Source: Prevotella sp. (GTDB lineage Bacteria; Bacillota_I; Bacilli_A; ML615J-28; CAG-313). From it: a stretch of DNA of 64,000 nucleotides. Within the stretch, counting starts at the first letter, position 1; every line of letters starts with the position of its first letter. Below the pieces are notes generated by a model, which was not told where the DNA came from, did no database searches, and worked only from the letters and a program-made list of their open reading frames with translations. A program made the position numbers and the translations under genes. The stretch lies in assembly GCA_023665755.1 (NCBI GenBank), contig JAMPDF010000002.1, positions 396,982 to 460,981 on the forward strand, given 5' to 3'. Positions 4,998 through 56,000 of the stretch are shown here, piece by piece.

Positions 4998-4999
4998 CA

Positions 5000-6748: not shown

Positions 6749-6751
6749 AAA

Positions 6752-6780
6752 GCGAATATCTTCGGATATTCCTTTTTTTC
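6752..6780 (+). terminator. Rho-independent terminator after potD
   Basis: Hairpin GAATATC-TTCG-GATATTC is followed by CTTTTTTT. Confidence 0.7.
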
Positions 6781-6862
6781 TATTTCATTGAAATTTTAGA
6801 TAACTTTGAATTGAATTATTGGTAAAAATTCACAATGTGTAGTATAATATAAAGACGTATAG

Positions 6863-7618: not shown

Positions 7619-8568
7619 AACGTGTTATTACTGGTGCGATTATGTTCTTAGTATTTGCCCCATTTATAGTTTTAGGGGGCTTGGCATCTACTATATTATT
7701 TGCTGTGTTAGCTTATATTGGTACATTTGAATTACTTCGTATGTATAGAAGCAAAAATGCAATACCCAAAGCATGTTTATATATTATTCCTATTTTTTCT
7801 AGTCTAATGGTTTTATCAGTTGGATGTAATGGAATAGATATGAGTGGCATAAAAAACTGTTTAGAAGATATTATGTATACATTGATTTTAAGTATTGTCA
7901 CATTGTTATTTATTGCTATCTTGGGTAAAGGGATTGCTATGAAAGACATTGTCTTCTTTATCTTTGCTCTGATTTATAGTGGATTTTCTTTTGCTATAAT
8001 GGCAGGACTAAGAAATAGTGATTTAATAGATACTATGTCATGTATGCTAAGTAGCATACGACCTTGTTTGGGATATTATGATTTATTTGGCGTGATTGAA
8101 ATTAACTGGGTAGGATTAGTCTTGTTTGGATATGTTCTGCTAACTACGATGTTTACTGATATTGGTGCATATCAATTCGGTGTTCTTTTTGGAAAAAAGA
8201 AATTATGCCCTAACATTAGCCCTAAAAAAACAGTGGAAGGAAGTATTGCTGGAACAATTTGTGGGGCTTTAATAGGAACCTCATTTATTGTTATAATAAA
8301 ACTATTTGTTTCTGGTTTTTCTTATACAAATTTTCCTCAATTTGATAATATCTATTTATTTTCTTTAGTGATGTTTTGTATCTCTCTTTTGCTCAGTGTA
8401 GCAGGCCAAATTGGTGATTTGGTTGCTTCTAAACTCAAAAGAGAGTATGAAATTAAAGATTTTGGACAAATTTTTCCGGGTCATGGTGGGGTGCTGGATC
8501 GTTTTGATTCTACGATTTTAACTACACTATTGTTTACCGCAATCTTATTTTTACTGGGGGCATTTTAA
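7612..8568 (+). CDS. cdsA: Phosphatidate cytidylyltransferase
   Basis: It is a polytopic membrane protein with the CdsA C-terminal signature (KRxxxxKDxGxxxPGHGGxxDRxDS). Confidence 0.85.
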   Translation: MLKRVITGAIMFLVFAPFIVLGGLASTILFAVLAYIGTFELLRMYRSKNAIPKACLYIIPIFSSLMVLSVGCNGIDMSGIKNCLEDIMYTLILSIVTLLFIAILGKGIAMKDIVFFIFALIYSGFSFAIMAGLRNSDLIDTMSCMLSSIRPCLGYYDLFGVIEINWVGLVLFGYVLLTTMFTDIGAYQFGVLFGKKKLCPNISPKKTVEGSIAGTICGALIGTSFIVIIKLFVSGFSYTNFPQFDNIYLFSLVMFCISLLLSVAGQIGDLVASKLKREYEIKDFGQIFPGHGGVLDRFDSTILTTLLFTAILFLLGAF

Positions 8569-34639: not shown

Positions 34640-34765
34640 TGTGGGTAATCTTCAGGGCAGGGTGAAATTCCCGACCGGTGGTATAGTCCACGAGCTAGCA
34701 ATAGCATGATTTGGTGTAATTCCAAAACCGATAGTAAAGTCTAGATGAAAGAAGACATAATGCCA
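34640..34765 (+). ncRNA. FMN riboswitch (RFN element) aptamer
   Basis: The sequence reads CTTCAGGGCAGGGTGAAATTCCCGACCGGTGGTATAGTCCACGAGC ... CCGATAGTAAAGTCTAGATGAAAGAAGAC. This matches the conserved RFN core (GGGCAGGGUGAAAUUCCCGACCGGCGGUAGUAAAGC...CCGACAGUGAAAGUCUGGAUG) with P1 TCTTC/GAAGA. Confidence 0.85.
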
Positions 34766-34785: not shown

Positions 34786-34815
34786 TGCCTAACTGAAGAT
34801 AGGCAGTTTTTATTT
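34786..34815 (+). terminator. Riboswitch expression-platform intrinsic terminator
   Basis: CTGCCT-aactgaagat-AGGCAG is followed by TTTTTATTT, immediately upstream of the ribU RBS. Confidence 0.75.
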
Positions 34816-34825
34816 GGAGAAGGAT

Positions 34826-35476
34826 ATGAAAAAGAACAAAAAAGTGTTGGATTATATGACAAAAGTGGCTATCTTTTCTGCGATATCCATTGTCTTGTAT
34901 TTTATTAAGTTTCCCCTACCTTTCTTATTTCCGGATTTTTTAGATATTCAATTTTCTAATCTTCCAGCAATATTAGGTGGGCTAGTCATGGGACCTATTG
35001 GTGGTGTGTTGATTGTAGTCATTCGAACTTTAATCAAATTACCATTTACATCTACAGCAGGTGTAGGTGAATTGGCCGATTTATTGATAGGTGTCTCCAC
35101 CGTTTTAGCCACTTCACTTGTTTATCGTAAACTCAAAACCAAAAAGGGTGGTGCGATTGCACTAGCTTTGGGTGTTGTAGTATGGGTGGCAATGGCATTA
35201 CTTGCCAATGGTACATTCTTGATTGAATTTTACAAAGAGGTGGCTGGACTAGATGCTGTAATTGGGATGTGCAAAAAAGTATTACCATCAATGAATGAAT
35301 CGAATTTTATGCGTCTTTATTTATTAGGAGCCATCTTGCCTTTTAATTTACTGCTTTCTACACTGGTTTCGCTAGTTACTTTCTTTGTGTATAAGCGTGT
35401 CTCTGTTTTATTCAAAAAGGAATTATTTCAAGGAAAAGATACATCCAATGAAACCGATGAGAATATTAACAATTAG
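34826..35476 (+). CDS. ribU: ECF-transporter S component for riboflavin (RibU-like)
   Basis: The start ATG at 34826 follows RBS GGAGAAGG. It is a small protein with 5-6 TM helices placed directly downstream of the FMN riboswitch. Confidence 0.7.
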   Translation: MKKNKKVLDYMTKVAIFSAISIVLYFIKFPLPFLFPDFLDIQFSNLPAILGGLVMGPIGGVLIVVIRTLIKLPFTSTAGVGELADLLIGVSTVLATSLVYRKLKTKKGGAIALALGVVVWVAMALLANGTFLIEFYKEVAGLDAVIGMCKKVLPSMNESNFMRLYLLGAILPFNLLLSTLVSLVTFFVYKRVSVLFKKELFQGKDTSNETDENINN

Positions 35477-42213: not shown

Positions 42214-42830
42214 AAGAAATGAAAGAAAATTACACTTTTGAAACCAGATATTATGCTGAAGGATTTCAATATATTGCGGGGACCGATGAAGTAGGAAGAG
42301 GCCCTTTGGCAGGTCCTGTTGTAGCAAGTGCTGTTATTATGCCTAAGGGATGTTATATTGAAGGGGTTACAGATTCGAAGAAATTATCGAGTAAAAAAAG
42401 AAAAGCTTTGCGAGCTGAAATTGAAGCAAAAGCATTAAGCATTGTTACAGTATTTATTGATGAGGAAACAATTGATCAAATCAATATTTATGAAGCTAGT
42501 CGCTTGGCCATGCAACAAGCTATAAAAGGTTTATATCCACAACCCGATTTGGTTCTATCTGATGCTATGCCATTACATATGGAAATAGAGAATCTCCCCA
42601 TTATTAAGGGCGATGAAAAAAGTTTTGTTATTGGCTGTGCAAGTATTATTGCCAAGGAAATTCGTGATGACTATATGGATATATTAGACAAAAGGTATCC
42701 TGGATATGGATTCAGTCAAAATAAGGGATATCCAACCAAGGCACATCAGGAGGCTTTACAAACGCAAGGTGTTTTGCCAATTCATCGCAAAACATATGGT
42801 CCTGTAGCAAGATTATTGCAAAATAAATAA
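42198..42830 (+). CDS. rnhB: Ribonuclease HII
   Basis: It has the IAGTDEVGRGPLAGPVVASAV catalytic N-motif and the rbgA-rnhB synteny. The exact start is ambiguous (42189, 42198 or 42219). Confidence 0.8.
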   Translation: MRKSVEEMKENYTFETRYYAEGFQYIAGTDEVGRGPLAGPVVASAVIMPKGCYIEGVTDSKKLSSKKRKALRAEIEAKALSIVTVFIDEETIDQINIYEASRLAMQQAIKGLYPQPDLVLSDAMPLHMEIENLPIIKGDEKSFVIGCASIIAKEIRDDYMDILDKRYPGYGFSQNKGYPTKAHQEALQTQGVLPIHRKTYGPVARLLQNK

Positions 42831-42844
42831 ATATAGGTGAAAAG

Positions 42845-43774
42845 ATGAATTTATTACATTTAAAATACGTTGTTGAAGTATATCAAACCAAATCATTTAC
42901 AAAAGCTGCAGAAAATTTATATATGGGACAACCTAATTTAAGTAGAGCCATTAAGGAGTTAGAACAGTCCTTAGGCATTACTATCTTTAGACGAACATCG
43001 AGAGGCATTGAAATTACTGAAGCAGGTGAGGAATTTGTTCATTATGCTAAAAAGATATTACAAGAGGTAGATGTTGTAGAAAAACGATATACACAACAAG
43101 AGACGCCAAAAGAAAAATTCTCAATTCTTGTGCCACGAGCTAGTTATATTGGTTCTGCTTTTGTAGCATTTATGCGCAAAATTGATCCTCATAAACATAT
43201 GGATATCACTTATAAAGAGACCAATTCTTTGAAAGCTCTAGATAAAGTATTAAAGGGTGAATATCGTTTGGGAATTATTCGATATCGCTCCTGTTTCGAT
43301 CGTGCATTTAAGCAAATGTTTGAGGAAAAGGGTTTAAATTATGAATTGATTTCTGAATTTCAGTATCAATTGGTAGTGCATCAAGATCACCCATTGACAA
43401 AGTTGGAACAAGTGACATGTGAAGATTTAAATCAATATATTGAAATCTGTCATCCTGATCCGTATGTCCCTAATGTTCCTTTTTATGATGTGAAAAAGAT
43501 TGAATTTTCAGAGGCCATTCATAGAAGAATATCAGTCTATGAAAGAGCTAGTCAATTTGATTTACTAGAGAATTTGCCCAATACATTTATGTGGGTTTCA
43601 CCTATTCCTCAAAAATTAATGGAAAAGTATAATTTGGTTGAACTAGTTTGTAAAGAACATAGTAATAAATATAAGGATGTCCTAATTTTTCGAAAAGGTT
43701 ATCATCTTACACCGATTGACCATCAATTTTTAACTATTTTATGTCAAGTAAAAAGAGAAATTTTAAAAGAATAA
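42845..43774 (+). CDS. LysR-family transcriptional regulator
   Basis: It has the N-terminal LysR wHTH (LHLKYVVEVYQTKSFTKAAENLYMGQPNLSRAIKELE) and a substrate-binding C-domain. Confidence 0.8.
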   Translation: MNLLHLKYVVEVYQTKSFTKAAENLYMGQPNLSRAIKELEQSLGITIFRRTSRGIEITEAGEEFVHYAKKILQEVDVVEKRYTQQETPKEKFSILVPRASYIGSAFVAFMRKIDPHKHMDITYKETNSLKALDKVLKGEYRLGIIRYRSCFDRAFKQMFEEKGLNYELISEFQYQLVVHQDHPLTKLEQVTCEDLNQYIEICHPDPYVPNVPFYDVKKIEFSEAIHRRISVYERASQFDLLENLPNTFMWVSPIPQKLMEKYNLVELVCKEHSNKYKDVLIFRKGYHLTPIDHQFLTILCQVKREILKE

Positions 43775-43812
43775 TATCCATATCAATTTGATATGGATTT
43801 ATTTATTTTTTA
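43775..43812 (+). terminator. Rho-independent terminator after the LysR gene
   Basis: ATCCATATCAA / TTGATATGGAT is followed by TTTATTTATTTTTT. Confidence 0.7.
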
Positions 43813-43815
43813 CAT

Positions 43816-43844
43816 TTGCCAAAAAAAAGCAAATTATGTATAAT
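43816..43844 (+). promoter_or_regulatory. Sigma-A promoter (TTGCCA-17-TATAAT) upstream of rex-adhE-hydrogenase operon
   Basis: The -35 is at 43816-43821, the spacer is 17 nt and the -10 is at 43839-43844, preceded by TG. Confidence 0.5.
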
Positions 43845-44005
43845 AATAGGGTAATAGCTTGTTGGTATATTCAATATCATTTTAATGCTAGAAAAAACAA
43901 AAATGAATAGCTATACAAGAATCATCTAGGATGATTTTTCCTTTATGATTTTTAATCGATATACTAGTATCGATATAGTTATATTTGATTCAAGGTGGTG
44001 AGAAC

Positions 44006-44629
44006 TTGCTACAGAATGCTGTTGCTAAAACAGTCCTTTATCGTATACCTATGTATTTGGAATATTTAATGGATATTCATGAAAATGAACCATCCATATC
44101 ACATATTTCTTCAAAGAAGATTTCGACTGATTTAGAATTAGGAGAAGTACAAGTAAGAAAAGATTTATCTATGATATGCGATAAGGGAAAACCCAAAATA
44201 GGATATAATTTATTAGAACTTATCGCGCATCTTCAAGACTATTTGGGGTGCAACTTTACCAAATATGCAATAGTAATAGGGGTTGGGAAATTAGGTAGCG
44301 CCATTTATCATTACGATGGTTTCAAGAAGTATGGTATTGAAATTGTTGCGGGATACGACAAAAAAGGTAACAGGATACCTGGTATTCAATTTTTTTCAAA
44401 AGAAAATGTGATGAAAATATTTCAAACGCATAAGATTGAAATTGGGATTATTTGTGTACCCAAAGAAGAAGCCCAAGAGGTTGCCGATGTACTAGTTGCA
44501 CTCGGTATAAAAGCAATTTGGAATTTTGCACCTATCCGGTTAAAGGTTCCAAAACATATATTTGTTCAAAATGAAAATCTTGCTTATTCATTAAGCATTA
44601 TCTCATCAATTATTAATCATTCACAATAG
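44006..44629 (+). CDS. rex: Redox-sensing transcriptional repressor Rex
   Basis: It has the N-terminal wHTH (VLYRIPMYLEYL) and an NADH-binding Rossmann fold (AIVGVGKLGSAIYHY). The likely TTG start at 44006 lies 5 nt after RBS AAGGTGGTGA. The ORF track starts at an upstream TTG at 43985. Confidence 0.75.
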   Translation: MLQNAVAKTVLYRIPMYLEYLMDIHENEPSISHISSKKISTDLELGEVQVRKDLSMICDKGKPKIGYNLLELIAHLQDYLGCNFTKYAIVIGVGKLGSAIYHYDGFKKYGIEIVAGYDKKGNRIPGIQFFSKENVMKIFQTHKIEIGIICVPKEEAQEVADVLVALGIKAIWNFAPIRLKVPKHIFVQNENLAYSLSIISSIINHSQ

Positions 44630-44638
44630 GAGGTAGAC

Positions 44639-47242
44639 ATGAATAAAATAGTTGACAGTTTAGAAACGTTAGAAGAAAAAATTAAAGAAGTGCGAAAGGC
44701 ACAAGAGATTTTAGCTACTTATACACAAGAACAAGTAGATAAGATTTTTAAGGCGGCGGCTATTGCGGCAAATTCCAATCGAATTATGTTAGCAAAAATG
44801 GCAGTAGAAGAAACAGGCATGGGAGTGGTTGAAGATAAGGTAATCAAAAACCATTATGCCAGTGAATATATTTATAATGCTTATCGTGATACACAAACTT
44901 GTGGTGTCATTGAAGAAGATAGTGCTTTTGGCATCAAAAAGGTTGCAGAACCAATTGGCGTTATTGCTGCAGTTATTCCGACGACAAATCCAACATCTAC
45001 AGCGATATTCAAAACATTAATTGCTCTAAAAACGCGAAATGGAATTATCATTAGTCCACATCCAAGGGCGAAAAAATCAACGATTGCTGCAGCAAAAGTG
45101 GTACTAGATGCTGCTGTAAAGGCGGGTGCTCCCAAACATATTATTGGTTGGATTGATGTTCCGAGTCTAGAAATGACGAATACTGTGATGAAAGAAGCCG
45201 ATATTATTTTAGCAACAGGTGGTCCTGGTATGGTGAAAGCTGCCTACTCTAGCGGCAAACCTGCTTTAGGAGTAGGTTCAGGAAATACACCAGCAATCAT
45301 TGACGAAAGTGCAAATGTGGTTCTTGCAGTCAACTCCATTATTCATTCCAAAACATTTGATAATGGAATGATTTGCGCATCTGAACAATCAGTGATTGTA
45401 TTAAAAAAGATATATGAACAAGTAAAAGATGAGTTTTTGAAAAGAGGCTGTTATTTCTTAAATCCAGAAGAATTGGAGAAAGTAAGAAAGACAATTTTAA
45501 TTAATGGATCTTTGAATGCGAAGATTGTAGGACAATCAGCTTATAAAATTGCTCAGTTATCGGGTATTGAGGTGCCTGCCTATACAAAAATTTTAATTGG
45601 TGAAGTAGAAAAATATGATTTGAGTGAAGAGTTTGCGCATGAAAAATTATCTCCAGTACTTGCTATGTATAAGGCTACTTCATTTGATGACGCTTTAGTT
45701 AAAGCAGAATCTTTAATTGCAGATGGTGGATTGGGACACACTTCCTCGATTTTTATTGATCAAATTCATGAAAAAGCCAAATTAGAAAAATTTTATAATC
45801 GAATGAAGACCTGTAGAATTATTGTCAATACACCTGCTTCTCAAGGAGGTATTGGGGATTTATATAACTTTAAACTGGCTCCATCTCTTACATTAGGTTG
45901 TGGATCATGGGGAGGAAACAGTGTTTCTGAAAATGTTGGTGTCAAACATTTATTAAATATCAAAACAGTAGCGGAAAGAAGGGAAAATATGTTGTGGTTT
46001 AGAACTCCTCAAAAAGTATATATCAAAAAAGGATGTTTACCTGTTGCCCTAAATGAATTAAAGGATGTATACAATAAAAAGAAGGTATTTATTGTAACAG
46101 ATGGTTTCTTGTATCAAAATGGATATACAAAGCCTATTACCAATCAATTGGATGCTATGGGAATAATGCATACTACTTTCTATAATGTTGCTGCTGATCC
46201 TTCTTTAGGCAGTGCAAAAGAAGGGGCAAGGCAAATGGCTTCTTTTGGACCAGATGCAATTATTGCTATAGGTGGAGGTTCCGCAATGGATGCTGCTAAA
46301 ATCATGTGGGTATTATATGAACACCCAGAAGTAGATTTTGCTGATATGGCTATGCGTTTTTCCGATATTCGCAAAAGAATTTATCAATTTCCAAAGATGG
46401 GGGAAAAAGCAATGTTTATTGCTATTCCAACTACAGCGGGAACTGGTTCTGAAGTTACGCCATTTGCTGTTATTACTGATGAGGCTACGGGTATTAAATA
46501 TCCACTAGCAGATTATGAATTGATGCCTAATATGGCAATTGTAGATGCGGATATGATGATGAATGCACCGAAAGGTCTTACGAGTGCATCCGGAATAGAT
46601 GCAGTTACACATGCATTAGAAGCATATGCATCAATGCTCGCAACAGAGTATACAGATGGTCTTGCAAAAGAGGCATTAAAGGTAATTTTTGAATATTTGC
46701 CTCGGGCATATGAAGATGGACCATCAGATGCAGTAGCTAGAGAAAAAATGGCTAATGCAGCAACTATGGCAGGTATGGCTTTTGCTAATGCTTTCCTAGG
46801 AGTTTGTCACTCTATGGCACATAAATTAGGTGCATTCCACCATTTACCACATGGTGTAGCTAATGCTTTGATGATTGATGAAGTGATTCATTTCAATAGT
46901 GCAGAAATTCCAACTAAGATGGGAACCTTCCCACAATATGATCATCCACATACGGCTAGTCGATATGCTGAAATTGCAGACTATTTGGGATTAGGAGGAA
47001 AGACAACTGAAGAAAAAGTAGAACTATTGATTGAAAAAATAGATCAGTTAAAAGAAAAAATTGGTATCAAACAGTCTATTCAAGAATATGGTGTGGATGA
47101 AAAAGATTTCTTAGAAAGATTAGATGAAATGACTGAACAAGCATTTGATGATCAATGTACAGGTGCTAATCCTCGTTATCCTCTAATGAGTGAAATTAAA
47201 CAAATGTATTTAAATGCATATTATGGAAAGGAGACAAAGTAA
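44639..47242 (+). CDS. adhE: Bifunctional aldehyde/alcohol dehydrogenase AdhE
   Basis: It is 867 aa with an N-terminal ALDH domain and a C-terminal Fe-ADH domain (GGGSAMDAAK and the iron-ADH histidines). Confidence 0.95.
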   Translation: MNKIVDSLETLEEKIKEVRKAQEILATYTQEQVDKIFKAAAIAANSNRIMLAKMAVEETGMGVVEDKVIKNHYASEYIYNAYRDTQTCGVIEEDSAFGIKKVAEPIGVIAAVIPTTNPTSTAIFKTLIALKTRNGIIISPHPRAKKSTIAAAKVVLDAAVKAGAPKHIIGWIDVPSLEMTNTVMKEADIILATGGPGMVKAAYSSGKPALGVGSGNTPAIIDESANVVLAVNSIIHSKTFDNGMICASEQSVIVLKKIYEQVKDEFLKRGCYFLNPEELEKVRKTILINGSLNAKIVGQSAYKIAQLSGIEVPAYTKILIGEVEKYDLSEEFAHEKLSPVLAMYKATSFDDALVKAESLIADGGLGHTSSIFIDQIHEKAKLEKFYNRMKTCRIIVNTPASQGGIGDLYNFKLAPSLTLGCGSWGGNSVSENVGVKHLLNIKTVAERRENMLWFRTPQKVYIKKGCLPVALNELKDVYNKKKVFIVTDGFLYQNGYTKPITNQLDAMGIMHTTFYNVAADPSLGSAKEGARQMASFGPDAIIAIGGGSAMDAAKIMWVLYEHPEVDFADMAMRFSDIRKRIYQFPKMGEKAMFIAIPTTAGTGSEVTPFAVITDEATGIKYPLADYELMPNMAIVDADMMMNAPKGLTSASGIDAVTHALEAYASMLATEYTDGLAKEALKVIFEYLPRAYEDGPSDAVAREKMANAATMAGMAFANAFLGVCHSMAHKLGAFHHLPHGVANALMIDEVIHFNSAEIPTKMGTFPQYDHPHTASRYAEIADYLGLGGKTTEEKVELLIEKIDQLKEKIGIKQSIQEYGVDEKDFLERLDEMTEQAFDDQCTGANPRYPLMSEIKQMYLNAYYGKETK

Positions 47243-47243
47243 A

Positions 47244-47993
47244 ATGGATTTAGAACGTGTTATTGCCGTAAGAACATCAAAGACAATTTATCGGACAGGT
47301 GAAAAAGTTGTTAAGGTATTTGATGAAGACTATTCAAAAGTAGATGTCTTAAATGAAGCGTTAAATCAAGCGATTGTAGAAGGATTAGGACTACATATTC
47401 CTAAGATTTATTCTGTAGAATCTGTAGAGGGAAAATGGGCCATTGTCTCTGAATATATAAAAGGAAAAACAATTTCTGATTTGATGCAAATGCATCCTGA
47501 GAAAAAAAATGAATATTTAGAAAAATTTGTGGATTTACAACTATCCATGCATCAAGTCAAGTGTTCTAATTTAAAGAAACTCAAAGACAAAATGAATACA
47601 AAAATTAGCCAAACGGACTTAGATGCTACTACTCGTTATGAATTACATACGAGATTAGAGGGGATGCCTAAACATAATAAGTTGTGTCATGGTGATTTTA
47701 ATCCATCAAATGTAATTATTCGTGAGGATGGAACACCATTTATTATTGACTGGAGTCATGCTACGCAAGGCAACGCATCTGCTGATGTTGCTAGAACATA
47801 TTTGTTATTTTGGTTAAATCAAGAGGGTGAAACAGCAAATCAATATTTGGATTTATATTGCCAAAAGAGTGGTGTAGCTAAGAAATATATTCAGTCTTGG
47901 TTACCTATTGTTGCTGCGTCACAATCTGTAAAAGGTCATCAAAATGAACGTGATCTTTTGTTGAGTTGGGTTAATGTTGTTGACTACGAATAG
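47244..47993 (+). CDS. Protein-kinase-fold phosphotransferase (APH/choline-kinase family)
   Basis: It carries the Brenner motif HGDFNPSNVII and IDWSHA (DxxxxN...D). The start ATG at 47244 follows RBS AAGGAG, 1 nt after the adhE stop. Confidence 0.6.
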   Translation: MDLERVIAVRTSKTIYRTGEKVVKVFDEDYSKVDVLNEALNQAIVEGLGLHIPKIYSVESVEGKWAIVSEYIKGKTISDLMQMHPEKKNEYLEKFVDLQLSMHQVKCSNLKKLKDKMNTKISQTDLDATTRYELHTRLEGMPKHNKLCHGDFNPSNVIIREDGTPFIIDWSHATQGNASADVARTYLLFWLNQEGETANQYLDLYCQKSGVAKKYIQSWLPIVAASQSVKGHQNERDLLLSWVNVVDYE

Positions 47994-48002
47994 GAGGAAA
48001 AT

Positions 48003-48242
48003 ATGAAAAAAGTAGTAGTTTGTATAGGAAGTTCATGTCATTTAAAAGGCTCTAGACAAGTTGTAGAAAGATTGCAAGAATTGATTGCAGAATATGATTT
48101 AAAAGAAGAAGTAGAACTCCAAGGTACTTTTTGTATGGGCAACTGCCAAAAAGGGGTTTGCGTGAAAGTAGATGAAACATTATTTTCCGTATCCCCAGAA
48201 ACAGTAGATGCATTCTTTCAAAAAGAGGTAATGGGAAAATAG
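48003..48242 (+). CDS. Thioredoxin-like [2Fe-2S] ferredoxin (NuoE/HydC-fold), copy 1
   Basis: It is 79 aa with four Cys in a CxxxxC...CxxxC pattern (C7, C12, C44, C48). Confidence 0.6.
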   Translation: MKKVVVCIGSSCHLKGSRQVVERLQELIAEYDLKEEVELQGTFCMGNCQKGVCVKVDETLFSVSPETVDAFFQKEVMGK

Positions 48243-48253
48243 GTACATAGCAA

Positions 48254-48502
48254 ATGACAATTCAAATTTGTATCGGTAGCTCATGCCATCTAAAAGGTTC
48301 ACAACAAATAATTGAATTATTTGAAAAAAGTATTCAGGAAAATCAATTAGAAGAAAAGGTAAAACTTGTCGGTTCTTTCTGTTTGGGAAAGTGTAGCAAT
48401 TCAGGAGTTAATGTTTGCATTGATGATAAGGAAATGATTAGTGTAACTCCAGAAAATTTTCACGCGTTTTTCAATGATAAAGTATTAAAATATTTAAAAT
48501 AG
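48254..48502 (+). CDS. Thioredoxin-like [2Fe-2S] ferredoxin (NuoE/HydC-fold), copy 2 (tandem paralog)
   Basis: It is 82 aa with the same Cys spacing as copy 1 and clear paralogy (ICIGSSCHLKGS in both). Confidence 0.6.
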   Translation: MTIQICIGSSCHLKGSQQIIELFEKSIQENQLEEKVKLVGSFCLGKCSNSGVNVCIDDKEMISVTPENFHAFFNDKVLKYLK

Positions 48503-48511
48503 GTGAGAAAT

Positions 48512-50188
48512 ATGTCCGAATTTTTAAAATTAAAGAAATCAAATTGTAAGAATTGTTATAAATGTATTCGACATTGTCCAGTAAAATCAATTAAATTCTC
48601 TGGTGATCAAGCGCATATTGTTGGCAACGAATGTATTTTATGTGGTCAATGTTTTGTCGTTTGTCCACAAAATGCCAAAGAAATTCAGAATGATTTGGAA
48701 AAAGTGAAAGTAATGCTTGCTGCAAAAGAACAAGTCATTGTAAGTTTAGCTCCTTCATTTATTGCCAACTACGATGGAATTGGTCTTGAGCAAATGGCAC
48801 AAGCTCTACGTCAATTGGGCTTTTTTGCGGTAGAGGAAACTGCCATTGGTGCAACCATTGTAAAAAAGCAATATGAAGCCATTTTGGAGTCAAAAAGACA
48901 AAATATCTTGATTACATCTTGCTGTCATTCTGTGAATTTGCTCATTCAAAAGTATTTTCCGAGTACACTTCGATATCTTGCTGACGTAAAATCTCCTATG
49001 CAAATGCATGCAATAGATATCAAGAAAAGAATGCCTAATGCCAAAGTTGTATTTATTGGACCATGTCTCGCTAAAAAGGATGAGGCAGACCATTATACAG
49101 GAATCGTTGATGCTGTCTTGACATACGAAGAATTGACAATGTGGTTAAAAGAAAGTAATATTGTTCTAGAAAAAGGACTAGAAGTAAATGAAAAGTCAAA
49201 GGCAAGATTATTCCCAATAACCGGAGGGATTTTAAAAACAATGAAACCTGATATTGCAGGCTATAAATATATTGCGATTGATGGGGTAGAAAATTGTATA
49301 GCTGCTTTAAAAGATATAGAAAATGGCATGTTAGATAATTGTGTAATTGAAATGTCAGCTTGCGTAGGTAGTTGTATAGGTGGGCCAGTTATGGAGAAAT
49401 ATCATCGTTCCCCTATTCGTGATTATTGTTCAGTCGTAAATTATGCAGGTAATCAAGATTTCGATGTAGAAGCATATGGTGATGAGGAACTAACCAAGCA
49501 TTTTGAATATATTGCAAGAAAGGCAGAAGAACCCTCTGAAGATGCTATTCGTTCTATTCTAAGACAGATGGGCAAGATGCGCCCATCAGATGAATTAAAT
49601 TGTGGTTCATGTGGCTATAATACTTGTCGTGAAAAGGCGATAGCGATTATTCAAGGTAAAGCTTCTATTTCTATGTGTTTGCCTTTCCTAAAAGAAAGAG
49701 CAGAGAAATTTTATACCAATATTATTGATAATACACCAGATGGCATTTTAGTATTAAATGAAGATCTAGAAGTTCAACAAATCAATGATGCGGCACGTAA
49801 GATTATGAATATTAAATATGCAACGGACGTATTAGGAGATCAAGTCATTCGTATTCTTGATCCATATCCATTCTTGCAAGTCAAATTAAACAATAAAAAT
49901 GTTTATAATGAACGTATTTATTTGGCTGAGTATAATCGATATGTCGAAAGAACTATTGTCTATGATAAAAATTATAAAATTATCATTTGTTTTATGAGAG
50001 ATGTTACACTTGAGGTTACCGCAAAAGAAAAGAAAGATGAAATCTCTTCAAGAACGGTAGAAATCGCTGATAAAGTGGTGGATAAACAAATGCGTATTGT
50101 CCAAGAAATTGCTTCCCTTTTAGGAGAAACTGCAGCTGAAACTAAAATTGCTTTAACGAAATTAAAGGAGTCAATGAAGGATGAATAA
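48512..50188 (+). CDS. hydS: Sensory-type [FeFe] hydrogenase (HydS/HfsB-like, group C). Domains are 2x[4Fe-4S] ferredoxin, H-cluster, Cx2Cx4Cx16C cluster and a C-terminal PAS domain.
   Basis: Ferredoxin motifs CKNCYKCIRHCP and CILCGQCFVVCP are present. The H-cluster motifs are variant: TSCCHSV (L1), FIGPCLAKKDE (L2), EMSACVGSCIGGP (L3). CGSCGYNTC-x16-C and a PAS-like C-terminus follow. The start ATG at 48512 follows AGGTGAG. Confidence 0.8.
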   Translation: MSEFLKLKKSNCKNCYKCIRHCPVKSIKFSGDQAHIVGNECILCGQCFVVCPQNAKEIQNDLEKVKVMLAAKEQVIVSLAPSFIANYDGIGLEQMAQALRQLGFFAVEETAIGATIVKKQYEAILESKRQNILITSCCHSVNLLIQKYFPSTLRYLADVKSPMQMHAIDIKKRMPNAKVVFIGPCLAKKDEADHYTGIVDAVLTYEELTMWLKESNIVLEKGLEVNEKSKARLFPITGGILKTMKPDIAGYKYIAIDGVENCIAALKDIENGMLDNCVIEMSACVGSCIGGPVMEKYHRSPIRDYCSVVNYAGNQDFDVEAYGDEELTKHFEYIARKAEEPSEDAIRSILRQMGKMRPSDELNCGSCGYNTCREKAIAIIQGKASISMCLPFLKERAEKFYTNIIDNTPDGILVLNEDLEVQQINDAARKIMNIKYATDVLGDQVIRILDPYPFLQVKLNNKNVYNERIYLAEYNRYVERTIVYDKNYKIIICFMRDVTLEVTAKEKKDEISSRTVEIADKVVDKQMRIVQEIASLLGETAAETKIALTKLKESMKDE

Positions 50189-51353
50189 TCTTTGTACAGA
50201 TATAGGCTATCGTAGTTTACTCAAACATCATGAGCAACTTTGTGGTGATCATATAGATATTATTGACCAGGAGGATGGAACAAAAATTATTGTACTTGCT
50301 GATGGATTAGGAAGCGGGGTAAAAGCATGTATTTTATCAACTTTAACTTCTAAAATTATTTCAACAATGATGGCAGAAGGAATCTCTATTGAGGAATGTG
50401 TCGCAACGATTGCTGCAACACTACCTGTTTGTTCTGTTCGTAAGGTGGCTTATTCTACCTTTACAATTTTGAAAATTTCACCTAATAGCGAAGCTGAAGT
50501 TATAGAATATGATAATCCTGGGATTATTTTAATACGTGATGGAGAAAATTATGAGTTAAACAAAACTGAATTGAACATTGGAGGTAAAAAAATTTACAAA
50601 TCCAAAGTCCAATTGTATGAAAATGACGTATTTGTAATGATGAGTGATGGATGTATTTACGCTGGAGTCGGAAAAACACTTAATTTTGGTTGGAAAAGAG
50701 AAGATATCATTGAAATGGTAAAGATTTTACCATCAGCTGGTTATACAGCAAAAACAATGACAACAATTTTACTAGATGAGTGTAATAAATTATATGGCTA
50801 TGAACCAGGTGATGATACGACTGCTTGTGTAGTTCGAATTAGAAAAAGAGAACCAATGAATCTTTTATTTGGTCCACCAAGTAATCCGGATGATTGTAAT
50901 CGAATGATGTCATTGTTTTTTTCTAAAGGTGGAAAACACATTGTATGTGGTGGAACAACTTCATCTATAGCTGCTAAATACTTAGGTAAATCAATCACCC
51001 CATCACTTAATTATTCGGATCCTAAAATCCCACCAACTGCTGAAATTGAAGGAGTAGATTTGGTAACAGAAGGTGTAATTACCATTAATCGTGTATTAGA
51101 ATATGCAAAGGATTATTTAGAAGATAATCAATCTTATGTCAATTGGTGTTATAAAAAAGATGGAGCATCTTTAATCTCACGTCTTTTATTTGAAGAAGCT
51201 ACCGATATTAATTTTTATGTAGGAAGAGCAATGAATCCTGCACATCAAAATCCCAATCTACCTATCAATTTCAACATTAAAATGCAATTGGTTCAAGAAC
51301 TATCAGAGTGCTTGAAAAAGATGGGAAAAAATATAAAAGTAAGTTATTTTTAG
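50181..51353 (+). CDS. PP2C (PPM/SpoIIE-type) serine phosphatase with an uncharacterised roughly 170-aa C-terminal domain
   Basis: It carries the PPM motifs GDHIDI, ADGLGSGVKA, MMSDGCIYAGVG and GDDTTACVV. Its start overlaps the hydS stop. Confidence 0.75.
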   Translation: MNNLCTDIGYRSLLKHHEQLCGDHIDIIDQEDGTKIIVLADGLGSGVKACILSTLTSKIISTMMAEGISIEECVATIAATLPVCSVRKVAYSTFTILKISPNSEAEVIEYDNPGIILIRDGENYELNKTELNIGGKKIYKSKVQLYENDVFVMMSDGCIYAGVGKTLNFGWKREDIIEMVKILPSAGYTAKTMTTILLDECNKLYGYEPGDDTTACVVRIRKREPMNLLFGPPSNPDDCNRMMSLFFSKGGKHIVCGGTTSSIAAKYLGKSITPSLNYSDPKIPPTAEIEGVDLVTEGVITINRVLEYAKDYLEDNQSYVNWCYKKDGASLISRLLFEEATDINFYVGRAMNPAHQNPNLPINFNIKMQLVQELSECLKKMGKNIKVSYF

Positions 51354-51364
51354 GTGAAAAAAAT

Positions 51365-52789
51365 ATGAAAAAATTTGATACACAAGTTCAATATTTAAAA
51401 TATAAAGTATTAAGAGAAGTAGCAAGAAAGGCTTGGGATGATACGTTATATGAAAAAATATTGGATATACCCAAAATTATTATTCCAGGACCTACCCCGA
51501 CTACAAGATGTTGTATTTATAAAGAAAGGGCAATTGTTGAAGAAAGAATTAAGATTGCTATGGGTGGAGATAAATCAAATCCCAATGTCATAGAAGTCAT
51601 TGATTTGGCTTGTGATGAATGTCCTGTTGCAGGATATGAAGTAACAGATGTATGTAGAGGTTGTCTTGCGCATCGCTGTCAAGATGCGTGTAAAAAAGAT
51701 GCCATTTATTTTGATCACAACCAAAAAGCTCACATTGATAAATCGAAATGTGTAGAATGTGGAAAGTGTTCTACAGTATGCCCATATGGTGCCATTGTCA
51801 ATTTTAAAAGACCATGTGAAAAATCATGCAAAGTAAAAGCGATTTCAATGGGACCAAATAAGGCAGCCAAAATCGATAATGATAAATGCATTTCTTGTGG
51901 TTCATGTGTTTATCAATGCCCATTCGGTGCTATTATGGATAAATCTTATATTATTAATGTCATTGATATTTTGAAAAAAAGTCAGCATAATCAAAAATAT
52001 AAAACTTATGCGGTAGTAGCTCCATCCATATCTAGTCAATTTGTGCATGCTAAATTAGGACAAGTGATTTCAGGTATCAAGGAATTAGGATTCTTTACAG
52101 TAGTAGAAGCAGCTCTTGGTGCTGATATGGTGGCATACAAGGAAACACAAGAATTAATTGAAAAAGGCTTTTTAACTAGTTCGTGTTGTCCTGCTTTTGT
52201 AATGTATATCAAAAAGAATTTTCCCAAATTGGTAGAGCATATTTCGCACAATTTATCTCCTGCCGCAGAAATTGCCAAATACATTAAGGAAACTGATCCA
52301 ACCGCAAAAGTGATTTTTATTGGTCCATGTACTGCGAAAAAGGCTGAGTTTCAGCAAGAAATGCAGAAACAATATGTTGATTCTGTATTGACATTTGAAG
52401 AATTGCAAGCCCTTTTTGATAGTAAAGATTTAGATATTTACTCATTATCAGAAGATGTTTTAGATAATGCATCTTATTATGGCAGAATCTTTGCTAGGAG
52501 TGGGGGTTTAACGGATGCTGTAAAACAGGCATTAATTGAATTGGGACAAACGGATTTTGAGGTAAAGCCAGTCGTATGTAATGGAATTGAAGAATGCCGA
52601 ATGGCCTTATTAAAAGTTGGTAAAATTGATATTGGTAACTTTATAGAAGGAATGGCTTGTGTAGGTGGATGCATTGCTGGAGCAGGTTGTTTAACTCATG
52701 GTGAAAAGAATAAAGCAGAAGTAGATAAGTATGGCATGGAAGCATATGAAAAAACCATTCAAGATGCTATCAAAGTGCTTAAAAAGTAA
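51365..52789 (+). CDS. hydA: [FeFe] hydrogenase catalytic subunit (group B-like, extra N-terminal Cys cluster plus 2x[4Fe-4S])
   Basis: The canonical H-cluster motifs SSCCPAFV (L1), FIGPCTAKKAE (L2) and EGMACVGGCIAGAG (L3) are present. Ferredoxin motifs are CVECGKCSTVCPYGAI and CISCGSCVYQCPFGAI. The start is set at MKKFDTQ after AGGTGA. The ORF track extends upstream into the PP2C gene. Confidence 0.8.
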   Translation: MKKFDTQVQYLKYKVLREVARKAWDDTLYEKILDIPKIIIPGPTPTTRCCIYKERAIVEERIKIAMGGDKSNPNVIEVIDLACDECPVAGYEVTDVCRGCLAHRCQDACKKDAIYFDHNQKAHIDKSKCVECGKCSTVCPYGAIVNFKRPCEKSCKVKAISMGPNKAAKIDNDKCISCGSCVYQCPFGAIMDKSYIINVIDILKKSQHNQKYKTYAVVAPSISSQFVHAKLGQVISGIKELGFFTVVEAALGADMVAYKETQELIEKGFLTSSCCPAFVMYIKKNFPKLVEHISHNLSPAAEIAKYIKETDPTAKVIFIGPCTAKKAEFQQEMQKQYVDSVLTFEELQALFDSKDLDIYSLSEDVLDNASYYGRIFARSGGLTDAVKQALIELGQTDFEVKPVVCNGIEECRMALLKVGKIDIGNFIEGMACVGGCIAGAGCLTHGEKNKAEVDKYGMEAYEKTIQDAIKVLKK

Positions 52790-52875
52790 TTCAATTTATG
52801 CTTTTGCAAAAGAGTTGCTTATCTATATGAAGTGTGCTAAAATTACCTTATATATAATATATGAGGTAATTTTTT

Positions 52876-53724
52876 ATGAACAATACTCATTTCATTCAAG
52901 AGGAAATAGAAGTTATATCTACGGCTAATCAAACACTACGACAAAGTTATTTTCGATATGAGAAAAAGATGAATATATTTAATTTCTCAATGTTCATGTG
53001 TTGTTTTGTTACTATGGCTTTGGTAGGAATGCTTTTATCATCTAAGATTATGACAGGAATTAGTGTAGGGATTACATTATTTTTACTATTGATGTTAGTA
53101 ATAGTATTAGTCAATATCCATAAGCGCTCCAAACTATCTTGTGATGTATCTTATGATGAATTTTTGTTTCAATCGGATGCGTTCATAGTGAAAGAAAAAT
53201 CAGTATCTAATTCATCTACAACTAAGATTTTATATACACAAGTAGTTGGACTTACGGAAAATAAAGATTTCTTTTTGATTCAATTAAAAGACAATAGAGG
53301 TTATCTAATTGAAGTTAGTGGCAATGAACTGGCTCTTTGGAAAATTAAACGAATGTTATTTCCTTATGTAAAAATATTCAATCAAATCACAGTGACTAAG
53401 AAGACAAAAATTGAATCCTGTGAGTATATGGATAATGCTTTGCGGTTATCACCAGGTATGATAACTGTTTTGAATGGGCTATTAACGTTTGCTTCACTGA
53501 TTGTAGGTATGTTTTGTGTTTATATAGACCAACAAACATTATCGCCACTTATGTTATTTCCAGTAGTTTTGGTTTTACAACTAAGTATAATCGGACTAGG
53601 TATTTTTTTAGGAACGAAAAGTGGTCAATTCAAAAAGAGCATTCTTGCAATAATAGTAGGAAGTATACTATTTTTTGCGGAATTGATGATAGGTTTATCT
53701 TACGTGATACTGAATTACTGGTAA
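52876..53724 (+). CDS. Membrane protein of unknown function (possible bacterial PH-like domain)
   Basis: An N-terminal TM pair is followed by a soluble roughly 120-aa segment and then about 3 C-terminal TM helices. No motif. Confidence 0.45.
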   Translation: MNNTHFIQEEIEVISTANQTLRQSYFRYEKKMNIFNFSMFMCCFVTMALVGMLLSSKIMTGISVGITLFLLLMLVIVLVNIHKRSKLSCDVSYDEFLFQSDAFIVKEKSVSNSSTTKILYTQVVGLTENKDFFLIQLKDNRGYLIEVSGNELALWKIKRMLFPYVKIFNQITVTKKTKIESCEYMDNALRLSPGMITVLNGLLTFASLIVGMFCVYIDQQTLSPLMLFPVVLVLQLSIIGLGIFLGTKSGQFKKSILAIIVGSILFFAELMIGLSYVILNYW

Positions 53725-53760
53725 GCGCATGAAAAATACAATGCGCTTTTTTTGTTTTTT
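53725..53760 (+). terminator. Rho-independent terminator
   Basis: GCGCAT-gaaaaataca-ATGCGC is followed by TTTTTTTGTTTTTT. Confidence 0.8.
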
Positions 53761-53815
53761 TAATAAATAAGTCGAAAAATATTCAAAATCAGTAGATGAT
53801 TTTTATTCGTTTTGG

Positions 53816-53844
53816 TTGACTTATTATTTGAAGTGTTATATAAT
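53816..53844 (+). promoter_or_regulatory. Sigma-A promoter of topA (TTGACT-17-TATAAT)
   Basis: The -35 is at 53816-53821, the spacer is 17 nt and the -10 is at 53839-53844. Confidence 0.55.
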
Positions 53845-53873
53845 CAAAACACAAAATGATGACGAGGTGTTTT

Positions 53874-56000
53874 ATGAAGTTACTCATCGTGGAATCTCCA
53901 GCAAAGTGTAAAACCATAGGGAATTATTTAGGTGAAGAATATTTAGTAGAATCTAGTATAGGTCATATTAGAGATCTCAAAATCAAAGGCAAAGGTGGAT
54001 TCGGAGTAGATATCGAAAATAACTTTCAGCCTGAATATAGTATTTTAAAAGATAAAGGAGAAATTGTTGAAAAACTAAAATCAGTTGCCAATTTAGCTGA
54101 GCACATCTATTTAGCAACTGACCCTGACCGTGAAGGAGAAGCGATTAGCTGGCATTTGAGCGAGGTACTAGAACAACCAGACGAAAAAGTTTCTAGAATT
54201 GTCTTTAATGAAATTACGAAAAACGCAATATTAAAAGCGATTCAAAATGATCGCGATATAGATATGGATTTGGTTCATTCACAAGAATCAAGAAGAATAT
54301 TAGATCGTATTATTGGATTCCGTTTATCTAGTTTACTTCAACAAAAGATAGGTTCAAAATCGGCTGGTCGGGTACAATCGGTTGCCTTAAAATTGGTAGT
54401 AGATCGTGAAAAAGAAATCGAAGCATTTGACAAGGTTGAATATTGGGATTTGGCTGCTATTTTAAATAAGGAAATAGCAGGAAATATTTATACATTACGA
54501 GCGAAATTTTTTGGCCGAAAAGATGAAAAGATGACACTTTCTTCTGAGGAAGAAACCAATCAAGTCATTGCAGCTTTAAAAGAAGATGAATACAAAATTA
54601 TCGATATCAATAAGAAAGAACGAAATCGTGCTTCACGTCCTCCTTTTATTACCTCGACATTACAACAAGATGCTGGTGCGAAATTCAATTATAATGCAAA
54701 ACGAGTAATGGGAATCGCCCAAAAGTTATATGAAGGGGTTGAACTTGGTAAAGAGCGTGTTGGTTTGATTACTTATATGCGTACTGATTCTATTCGTTTA
54801 TCGGATGAGTTTGTTCATTCTGCTAAACAATATATTACTGAAAAGTATGGTGAAAAATATTATAAAGGAACCAAAAAAGCGCCTAAAGGAAAGAATATAC
54901 AAGATGCGCATGAAGCCATTCGTCCAACCAATATTGTTAGAACTCCTGAGAGTGTGAAAAAATATTTGGCTGCTGATGAATATAAAATCTATTCCTTAAT
55001 ATATAATAGAGCGATTGCCTCTTTAATGAGCGATGCCATATTAGAGGATACGAAAGTAGATATTGAAAACCAAGGCTACATTTTTAATTTAACAGGTGAA
55101 ATTACTTTATTTGATGGTTTTTTAACTATTTATGAAGAATCAAGTTTGGTCGATGAAGAAGAAAATTTGGATCACTTACCAGAGTTATCCATTGGAGAAA
55201 ATTTATCCTTCCAAGAAATTTCAAAGGAACAGAAATTTACTTCGCCACCATATCGTTATACTGAGGCAAGATTAATTCGTAAGATGGAAGAACTAGGCAT
55301 TGGAAGACCTTCTACTTATGCACTAACGATGGAAACTTTGCGGGCAAGAGCATATGTAGCGATGGAAAAGAAAACATTCGTTCCCACTGCACAAGGAAGA
55401 CTTACGACAGAACAATTGGAATTGTTCTTTAGTAGCATTATTAATGTAAAATATACTGCTGATATGGAAAATACATTAGATAAAATTGCTGAGGGCGATG
55501 CGATTTGGTATGAGGAACTACGCAAGTTTTATGATGTGTTTGCTCCACTCATTGAAAATGCTAGAGACAATATGGTCAAAATATATCCAAAAATAACGGA
55601 TGAATTTTGTCCTGAATGTGGGTTGCCATTATTCATTAGACGTGGTCCATTTGGTGAATTCACCGCTTGCTCGGGTTATCCTCATTGCCGTTACATCAAA
55701 AAAGCACCAAAGAAGGAAGTGGTGACAACGGGAGTAACCTGTCCTATTTGTGGTGAAGGTGAGGTTGTCGAAAGAACAAGTGCAAGGGGAAGATCAAAAG
55801 GTGCATTATTTTATGCTTGTAGTCGTTTCCCAAAATGTAAAGCCACTTTTTCAGGTATTCCTACAGGAGAAAAATGTGAAATTTGTGGTGCACCGATGAT
55901 TCGAGTAGGTGAAATTATTCGTTGTAATAGTGAACGCTGTAAATCCAATGTTGGATTGCTACCTCAAAAAGAAGAAAACAAAAAGATTGATAGCAAGTAG
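53874..56000 (+). CDS. topA: DNA topoisomerase I
   Basis: It has the Toprim N-terminus (MKLLIVESPAKCKTIGNYLG), a catalytic Tyr region and three C-terminal Cys4 zinc ribbons. RBS GAGGTG lies before the ATG at 53874. Confidence 0.95.
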   Translation: MKLLIVESPAKCKTIGNYLGEEYLVESSIGHIRDLKIKGKGGFGVDIENNFQPEYSILKDKGEIVEKLKSVANLAEHIYLATDPDREGEAISWHLSEVLEQPDEKVSRIVFNEITKNAILKAIQNDRDIDMDLVHSQESRRILDRIIGFRLSSLLQQKIGSKSAGRVQSVALKLVVDREKEIEAFDKVEYWDLAAILNKEIAGNIYTLRAKFFGRKDEKMTLSSEEETNQVIAALKEDEYKIIDINKKERNRASRPPFITSTLQQDAGAKFNYNAKRVMGIAQKLYEGVELGKERVGLITYMRTDSIRLSDEFVHSAKQYITEKYGEKYYKGTKKAPKGKNIQDAHEAIRPTNIVRTPESVKKYLAADEYKIYSLIYNRAIASLMSDAILEDTKVDIENQGYIFNLTGEITLFDGFLTIYEESSLVDEEENLDHLPELSIGENLSFQEISKEQKFTSPPYRYTEARLIRKMEELGIGRPSTYALTMETLRARAYVAMEKKTFVPTAQGRLTTEQLELFFSSIINVKYTADMENTLDKIAEGDAIWYEELRKFYDVFAPLIENARDNMVKIYPKITDEFCPECGLPLFIRRGPFGEFTACSGYPHCRYIKKAPKKEVVTTGVTCPICGEGEVVERTSARGRSKGALFYACSRFPKCKATFSGIPTGEKCEICGAPMIRVGEIIRCNSERCKSNVGLLPQKEENKKIDSK

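Follow-up and report, generated by a model that had tools for sequence, protein, structure and literature searches.

We describe a putative sensory [FeFe] hydrogenase, HydS, encoded by the gene hydS at positions 48512-50188 of a 64,000-nucleotide stretch of DNA (contig JAMPDF010000002.1 of assembly GCA_023665755.1, labelled Prevotella sp.; the whole stretch is referred to as the window). The available evidence supports assignment of the predicted protein to group C (M2f, HydS/HfsB-type), as a first-pass annotation made from the letters of the window had proposed; its domain order, metal ligands, second-sphere substitutions and gene neighborhood all fit published descriptions of these enzymes. 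The operon type has been known since 2009-2014, and the exit of the signal from the sensory hydrogenase is still unsolved; the first-pass annotation had called the downstream signaling unknown, and this still holds as of April 2026 (PMC13104023).

In gut and rumen fermenters, the choice between forming ethanol and releasing H2 that feeds methanogens is thought to rest with putative H2-sensing [FeFe] hydrogenases. We find one compact module (sensor, PP2C phosphatase, kinase, two ferredoxins, group B hydrogenase, AdhE, Rex and LysR) across ~80 species, mostly gut Clostridia, plus an Anaeroplasma-like bacterium. The strongest constraint on HydS falls on its terminal helix, not on its PAS domain, and its phosphatase partner has an undescribed second domain; helix, PP2C and kinase are concrete targets for interaction and phosphorylation work. 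HydS adds another member to the described HydS/HfsB family, and the clade-level details and the breadth of the module are leads on the open signaling question, not a new system.

Domain architecture and active site of HydS

The gene and the parts of its product are as follows.

48512..50188, + strand: hydS, 558 amino acids (aa), group C (M2f) putative H2-sensing [FeFe] hydrogenase
48545..48667, + strand: two CxxCxxCxxxCP [4Fe-4S] motifs of HydS (residues 12-52)
48731..49387, + strand: H-domain of HydS (residues 74-292; Pfam, CpI alignment and fold match)
49601..49678, + strand: C-terminal Cx2Cx4Cx16C motif of HydS (residues 364-389; PF04060, E 4e-11)
49709..50002, + strand: PAS domain of HydS (residues ~400-497; Pfam, family profile and AlphaFold2 model)
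50006..50182, + strand: C-terminal helical hairpin of HydS (residues 499-557; AlphaFold2 helices 499-537 and 541-557)

The open reading frame runs on the + strand from a GTG at 48503 to the stop at 50188. The ATG at 48512 (MSEFLK...) was preferred as the start, and the GTG dropped, because the homologs are all 558 aa long; this start and length are those of the deposited protein and of 120/120 closest homologs, and the coordinates of the first-pass annotation are therefore exact. The deposited product (MCM1260196.1 / MCM1350456.1) is annotated only as a '4Fe-4S binding protein'. The analysis placed the window on contig JAMPET010000002.1 of assembly GCA_023664905.1. Identical HydS proteins have been deposited from two metagenome-assembled genomes (MAGs) labelled Prevotella sp. 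and Staphylococcus sp., and the MAG with a 99%-identical protein carries the label Anaeroplasma bactoclasticum (Mollicutes). For the assemblies carrying these identical or 99% proteins, the assigned taxonomy looks unreliable.

The two N-terminal ferredoxin motifs, CKNCYKCIRHCP (residues 12-23) and CILCGQCFVVCP (residues 41-52), give several Fer4 family matches in Pfam and are followed by an H-domain with a Fe_hyd_lg_C match at E 8e-48. Within it, L1 is TSCCHSV (residues 135-141), L2 is GPCLAKKDE (residues 183-191) and L3 is EMSACVGSCIGGP (residues 280-292). The extra cluster motif CGSCGYNTCREKAIAIIQGKASISMC has the exact spacing C364-x2-C367-x4-C372-x16-C389 and lies in the PF04060 (FeS) match. 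Every ferredoxin, L1, L2, L3 and Cx2Cx4Cx16C motif that had been quoted earlier was found in the sequence.

The PAS domain of HydS scores slightly above the Pfam cutoffs (PF00989, 24.5 bits vs cutoff 22.6; PAS_8, 24.1 vs 21.8). Since these single-sequence scores are borderline, the domain was checked in three further ways. Among 27 diverse members of the family, PAS_8 matched 25 and PF00989 matched 21, with a best E of 5e-9. A profile of the C-terminal region, compared with solved structures, found the WalK PAS domain at E 9e-9, followed by 3a0r ('Sensor protein'), DosP, FixL and CitA. In the AlphaFold2 model of HydS (pLDDT 87.6, pTM 0.73), residues 411-497 form a five-stranded sheet with intervening helices, after which come the helices 499-537 and 541-557. 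The hidden Markov model search that had been proposed as a check thus finds both families, Fe_hyd_lg_C and PAS, and the claim of a PAS fold behind the extra cluster is borne out by Pfam, family profile and model topology alike; the C-terminal region is PAS-like. The whole model is closest in fold to the [FeFe] hydrogenases CbA5H, T. kivui HydA1 (of HydABC) and CpI (E ~1e-20). The PDB copy searched contains no group C structure, and the best sequence and fold matches there are group A enzymes and CbA5H.

Conservation of the metal ligands was assessed by scanning 1.84 billion cluster representatives, which gave 870 proteins at E <= 1e-30; 122 full-length representatives of 50%-identity clusters were then aligned, down to ~31% identity. 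The H-cluster cysteines C138, C185, C284 and C288 are invariant in these 122 proteins, as are the C-terminal cysteines C364, C367, C372 and C389. In a HMMER alignment the former four fall on the CpI ligands C300, C355, C499 and C503, so that no H-cluster ligand is missing from HydS or from its aligned relatives. Neither of the two outcomes that the first-pass annotation had named as refuting it, missing ligand cysteines or a C-terminal region unlike PAS, was observed.

The surroundings of the ligands differ from those of CpI. In the same alignment, C299 and E282 of CpI are kept in HydS as C137 and E122, and C300 corresponds to C138, next to which P301 is replaced by H139 and W303 by V141. E279 is replaced by K119, R286 is deleted and S319 is replaced by A157, which interrupts the canonical proton pathway. 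M353 and M497 are replaced by G183 and S282, respectively. Across the 122 representatives, position 353 is Gly in 112, position 497 is N, S, L or M, and position 299 is C in 42, A in 38 and S in 30. Cys at the latter position is therefore common, occurring in about a third of the family, and its loss is a property of the characterised enzymes rather than a family-defining one, because the position is variable. The L1 form xSCCHS[VI]N is found in 118/120 close homologs (>=69% identity), and His occupies position 301 in 10/122 of the diverse representatives; the CCH form of L1 (P301H) is a clade signature. The variant H-cluster motifs that the first-pass annotation reported are thus real, but they are features of the family and the clade and are not peculiar to this gene.

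Putative sensory hydrogenases of group C, or M2f, have been described previously (PMC8163306, PMC10055695, PMC6776011). HydS shares their structural features: the ligands, two N-terminal motifs, the Cx2Cx4Cx16C motif, a PAS domain and replacement of M353 and M497. The PAS domain lies downstream of the C-terminal cluster, which distinguishes M2f from M2e. The loss of the proton-relay Cys299 that goes with group C / M2f is not seen, as HydS keeps C137. The gene context is that of the C3 type of HydDB, in that hydS is accompanied by a gene for a Ser/Thr phosphatase and by one for a fermentative hydrogenase. The arrangement C3-[PP2C]-group B is HydDB group C3 in Vallitalea (PMC6163223), and by its match to that description the present locus appears C3-like.

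Other groups were considered and rejected. Group A enzymes have the consensus L1 TSCCPxW, L2 MPCxxKxxE and L3 ExMACxxGCxxG, and the proton pathway E279-E282-R286-S319-C299; membership is ruled out by P301H, W303V, M353G, M497S, E279K, the deletion of R286 and S319A, together with a TIGR02512 score of 95 bits vs a cutoff of 406. Group B membership of HydS is ruled out by a TIGR04105 score of 188 vs a cutoff of 450, and group D / M2e (the TamHydS type) by HydS having a PAS domain and Gly at position 353.

The most conserved segment of HydS lies behind the PAS domain. Residues 520-548 (50069-50155; VVDKQMRIVQEIASLLGETAAETK here, at residues 522-545) carry the motif KQMRxxQEIASLLGETxAETK, and the mean frequency of the major residue is 0.76 in the terminal helix, 0.67 in the cluster domain, 0.48 in the H-domain and 0.37 in the PAS domain. 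All 27 sequences of the panel have G538, E539 and A542, and Thr or Ser occupies position 540 in 113/122 and position 544 in 116/122 representatives.

The predicted operon, its phosphatase and its relatives

The following genes and signals surround hydS.

42845..43774, + strand: LysR-family regulator (HTH_1, E 9e-21, and LysR_substrate), separately transcribed
43816..43844, + strand: predicted sigma-70-like promoter TTGCCA-17-TATAAT (consensus match, 11/12 positions)
43921..43935, + strand: inverted repeat ATCATC-N3-GATGAT with a T-rich run after it, in the operon leader upstream of rex
44006..44629, + strand: rex, NADH/NAD+ redox-sensing repressor (NCBIfam NF003994, 226 bits, cutoff 130)
44639..47242, + strand: adhE, bifunctional acetaldehyde/alcohol dehydrogenase (Pfam Aldedh and Fe-ADH)
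47244..47993, + strand: APH/choline-kinase/Bud32-like kinase (Pfam APH, E 2e-20; RIO1, E 4e-8)
48003..48242, + strand: thioredoxin-like [2Fe-2S] ferredoxin 1 (79 aa, Cx4C...Cx3C; Pfam 2Fe-2S_thioredx)
48254..48502, + strand: thioredoxin-like [2Fe-2S] ferredoxin 2 (82 aa, in the hfsA position; 2Fe-2S_thioredx, E 6e-9)
50181..51353, + strand: SpoIIE/RsbU-type PP2C Ser/Thr phosphatase (390 aa; Pfam SpoIIE, E 1.6e-16)
51365..52789, + strand: group B monomeric [FeFe] hydrogenase, HfsD-like (TIGR04105 FeFe_hydrog_B1, 562 bits, cutoff 450)

hydS is the sixth of eight genes in the order rex, adhE, kinase, ferredoxin 1, ferredoxin 2, hydS, PP2C and group B hydrogenase. These are predicted to form one operon on the basis of the promoter, the terminator that precedes it and the short or overlapping gaps between the genes. 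The terminator-like hairpin lies at 43776-43798, 3' of the LysR gene, and the promoter, which has the highest score within 42500-54000, lies upstream of rex and is likely that of the operon. The leader inverted repeat may be an operator, as it fits the ATC-N9-GAT box of LysR-type regulators, or an attenuator; a similar ATCATC-N4-GATGAT stands upstream of rex (~5355-5400) in a Bacilli relative with 82% HydS identity (locus L002). The same leader also contains the direct repeat ATCGATAT-ACTAGT-ATCGATAT at 43957-43978.

Several of the genes are closely packed. The kinase gene starts 2 nucleotides past the adhE stop, and the PP2C gene overlaps the hydS stop by 8 nucleotides, hydS and PP2C being translationally coupled. 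The kinase has an HGDFNPSN catalytic loop and an IDWS motif; its best solved relative is choline kinase (E 1.5e-4), and its fold is APH/choline-kinase-like, not that of a Hanks-type protein kinase. The group B hydrogenase is presumed to be the H2-evolving enzyme.

The phosphatase has two domains. In its AlphaFold2 model (pLDDT 87) the N-terminal domain is structurally closest, by Foldseek, to SpoIIE, Rv1364c-RsbU and RsbX. The C-terminal alpha/beta domain (residues ~225-390; 50853-51353) has invariant GGT, PP, LVTEGV and G-x-A-x-N-x-A motifs and matches no Pfam family. A profile search of this domain against PDB sequences gave only insignificant matches, to a hypothetical protein (E 0.075) and to the SIS-fold protein GmhA (E 0.087). 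Among the 50 Foldseek matches listed for the phosphatase in the PDB, all are of PP2C type except one poorly superposed Legionella effector, and because these matches are PP2C-type phosphatases the fold of the C-terminal domain stayed hidden. The domain is left unclassified.

The spread of the locus was surveyed with one genome per GTDB species. At least 600 matching stretches were found, at least 591 of them encoding a HydS relative, and the best 80, in which HydS is 63-82% identical, were examined; counts were taken among the loci with enough flanking sequence. Most of these 80 loci are from MAGs of gut or rumen Clostridia (Oscillospiraceae, Acutalibacteraceae, Ruminococcus), and a few carry the label Bacilli or Anaeroplasmataceae. 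PP2C lies directly downstream of hydS in 73/73 assessable loci, ferredoxin 1 is present in 76/78 and ferredoxin 2 in 67/79. The group B hydrogenase occurs in 60/65 and is missing from some distant hydS loci. A LysR homolog is found upstream in 35/46, the kinase in 57/74, sometimes without adhE, adhE itself (77-83% identical) in 35/59 and rex in 22/55.

The pairing of hydS with PP2C is kept where HydS identity is only 32-42%. Reciprocal look-up from distant PP2Cs of 384-390 aa leads back to an adjacent, overlapping hydS, as in Alkaliphilus metalliredigens and a Gottschalkiaceae genome. Because the pair is found in close, distant and reciprocal loci alike, sensor plus phosphatase is the invariant core of the module. 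In A. metalliredigens (CP000724.1; locus at 2264-8499, L088 in our survey) the genes immediately before the hydS-PP2C-ferredoxin trio are pfkA and pyk rather than adhE. This is a hint that the fermentation or glycolysis genes to which the sensor pair is joined differ by lineage.

From LysR to the group B hydrogenase (42845-52789), the module is 63-88% identical at the protein level to modules of gut Clostridia MAGs (AdhE ~80%), and related loci, including L002, have it without the topA or YcxB-like gene that flanks it here. The high identity to the Clostridia modules and the differing flanks suggest movement of the module among lineages and genomic surroundings.

Comparison with known systems and proposed role of HydS

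The sensory hydrogenases of Thermotoga maritima (TmHydS), Thermoanaerobacterium saccharolyticum (TsHfsB) and Ruminococcus albus (RaHydS) were compared with HydS through published descriptions. TmHydS has the same domain order of two [4Fe-4S] motifs, H-domain, Cx2Cx4Cx16C and PAS (PMC8163306, PMC10055695), and in both proteins M353 is Gly, M497 is Ser and the canonical proton pathway is unconserved (PMC8163306). They differ in that TmHydS has A131 at the C299 position, whereas HydS has C137, E282 and a His for Pro301; C299 has been reported as unconserved in M2e/M2f, A131 of TmHydS being an example (PMC8163306, PMC10055695). The signature A131/S267, in TmHydS numbering, is absent among the 122 full-length representatives. 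TamHydS of group D also shares the N-terminal clusters, the C-terminal Cx2Cx4Cx16C motif and an altered active-site pocket (PMC8163306, PMC13104023), but group D enzymes have no PAS domain and carry Ser or Thr at M353, where HydS has a PAS domain and Gly.

The hfsABCD operon of T. saccharolyticum has the same order of small upstream gene, PAS-containing hydrogenase, Ser phosphatase and ferredoxin-linked hydrogenase (PMC5707799, PMC11837493). hfsB is genetically linked to adhE expression there, and adhE lies in the same predicted operon here. The present locus differs from hfsABCD in having two thioredoxin-like ferredoxin genes rather than the one hfsA, in including rex, adhE and the kinase in the predicted transcription unit, and in its host, a mesophilic Anaeroplasma-like gut or rumen bacterium rather than a thermophilic Clostridium relative. 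The hydS cluster of R. albus 7 likewise has eight genes, among them adhE and those for a putative sensory hydrogenase, a Ser/Thr phosphatase and a fermentative enzyme, but its catalytic partner is a group A1 ferredoxin-only enzyme (PMC6776011), whereas the partner here belongs to group B by TIGR04105. In comparison with that cluster, the kinase here is APH/choline-kinase-like and not Hanks-type. The R. albus unit reportedly also has rex, in an account ascribed to Zheng and dated 2014. The operon described here combines features of hfsABCD (small upstream gene, sensor, phosphatase and group B-like hydrogenase) with the adhE, the kinase and, reportedly, the rex of R. albus.

Two further systems resemble the module more distantly. 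The phosphatase domain downstream of HydS is closest to SpoIIE, Rv1364c-RsbU and RsbX, and so recalls the SpoIIE/RsbU/RsbP/RsbX systems. Partner-switching PP2Cs are controlled by a sensory partner through helical elements. The present operon differs from these in having neither a STAS-domain substrate nor a GHKL anti-sigma kinase, in that its sensor is a separate hydrogenase polypeptide, and in the unclassified C-terminal domain of its PP2C. In HoxBC-HoxJ-HoxA of Ralstonia eutropha, a slow hydrogenase reports H2 through a PAS partner to a phosphorylation cascade (PMC5707799, PMC6776011), although that enzyme has an unrelated metal site and fold and acts through a histidine kinase and a response regulator in place of PP2C and an APH-like kinase.

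We consider it probable, on balance, that HydS is an H2 sensor, not a bulk catalyst, and that it works via PP2C and the kinase to balance H2 against ethanol. The identity and anatomy of HydS are established here, and its function is proposed by analogy with homologous systems. HydS has the motifs for a full H-cluster ligand set and three accessory [4Fe-4S] sites. H2 would bind the H-cluster and be split slowly, and the N-terminal clusters and neighboring [2Fe-2S] ferredoxins may serve to reference the resulting redox or conformational state to the electron pool of the cell. The C-terminal cluster domain and then the PAS domain would pass this state on to the terminal helix, which would dock on PP2C and gate it. 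PP2C and the kinase would in turn set the phosphorylation of a target, and electron disposal would shift between H2, via the group B hydrogenase, and ethanol, via AdhE, with the participation of Rex and probably LysR.

This chain from sensing to phosphorylation is favored because of data from T. saccharolyticum, R. albus and TmHydS. In T. saccharolyticum, adhE expression, ethanol yield and hydrogenase activity all rise when hfsA or hfsB is deleted, an effect that requires hfsC and hfsD (PMC5707799); the eight-gene cluster of R. albus goes down 111-fold when a partner organism removes H2 (PMC6776011); and TmHydS shows low turnover and stabilised reduced states (PMC10055695, PMC13104023). A number of observations weigh against the proposal. 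Loss of the C299 cysteine has been given as part of the reason why TmHydS and TamHydS turn over slowly (PMC8163306, PMC8924675), whereas HydS keeps Cys at C299 and Glu at E282 of CpI, so that the argument for an enzyme slow by design is not directly transferable. The C-terminal cluster of TamHydS, a group D enzyme, is not reduced under 1 atm H2 (PMC13104023), and a simple electron relay via that cluster is therefore disfavored. The interaction of HydS with PP2C is a prediction from gene adjacency and conservation, and the fold of the kinase would equally suit a small-molecule substrate. Matches to the Rex operator TTGTTAAN4TTAACAA with at most three mismatches number 15 vs 19.8 expected, none of them near the promoter.

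It is unlikely, in our judgment, that HydS is instead a catalytic or electron-transfer subunit of a ferredoxin-dependent Hfs hydrogenase made up of the ferredoxins, HydS and HydB, with the PAS domain and phosphatase fine-tuning it. Such a role would suit the intact H-cluster ligands, the kept C299 and E282 and the close packing of the predicted operon, in which two small ferredoxins and the group B hydrogenase are also encoded, and the original account of the hfs operon presented it as the main H2-evolving hydrogenase in T. saccharolyticum (PMC11837493). Deletion of hfsB alone in that organism, however, raises hydrogenase activity, whereas deletion of the whole operon lowers it (PMC5707799). 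HydS has other residues in place of the two methionines that frame the diiron site and lacks E279, R286 and S319, and its constant partner is the phosphatase (73/73), not HydB (60/65, and absent in some distant loci).

The two ferredoxin genes immediately upstream of hydS (76/78 and 67/79 loci) also accord with another reading, in which HydS senses the redox state of the ferredoxin or NAD(P)H pool via its Fe-S clusters and PAS domain, the H-cluster being vestigial or an electron sink. Rex, a sensor of NADH, is encoded in the same predicted operon, redox state is a frequent signal of PAS domains, and the PAS domain of HfsB has been described as possibly responsive to cellular redox potential (PMC11837493). 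This reading nevertheless strikes us as improbable: the four H-cluster cysteines and the L1-L3 framework are invariant down to ~31% identity, so that a vestigial site is not expected, and the stoichiometries of R. albus in pure culture vs co-culture match high vs low H2, which the authors credit primarily to the H2 level (PMC6776011). We give almost no credence to HydS being a degenerate, cofactor-less scaffold without H2 chemistry. L1, L2 and L3 do deviate from the catalytic consensus, but the ligands are all conserved under strong selection across thousands of homologs, and characterised relatives bind a functional H-cluster (PMC10055695). A pseudo-hydrogenase reading was likewise discarded, all ligands being invariant.

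Within the proposal of HydS as an H2 sensor, its output deserves separate consideration. The retained Cys299, the P301H change, the conservation of the terminal helix and the C-terminal domain of PP2C all go beyond the HydS papers cited here. We raise tentatively, as something less probable than the sensory role itself, that the invariant terminal hairpin is the output element of HydS and docks on the dedicated 390-aa PP2C, whose C-terminal alpha/beta domain (invariant GGT, DLVTEGV and NPA motifs) would belong to no described family, and that with the APH-like kinase they make up a self-contained, horizontally mobile H2-to-phosphorylation module switching between H2 and ethanol. The conserved Thr/Ser residues 540 and 544 might be the very sites that become phosphorylated. 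The CCH variant, with Cys299 kept and P301H, could mark a subclass of sensors that differ in proton path or in the range of H2 to which they respond.

Other features of the window

An FMN (flavin mononucleotide) riboswitch (RF00050, 108 bits) lies at 34644-34760, immediately 5' of a gene for an energy-coupling factor (ECF) transporter S-component at 34814-35476. The largest of only three called minus-strand genes in the window lies at 20576-22918; its 772-aa product combines a purple-acid-phosphatase N-terminal domain and a metallophosphatase domain with Flg_new repeat domains. GC skew is ~0.01-0.03 across 20-24 kb; elsewhere in the window it is uniformly positive, and the genes lie almost entirely on the + strand.

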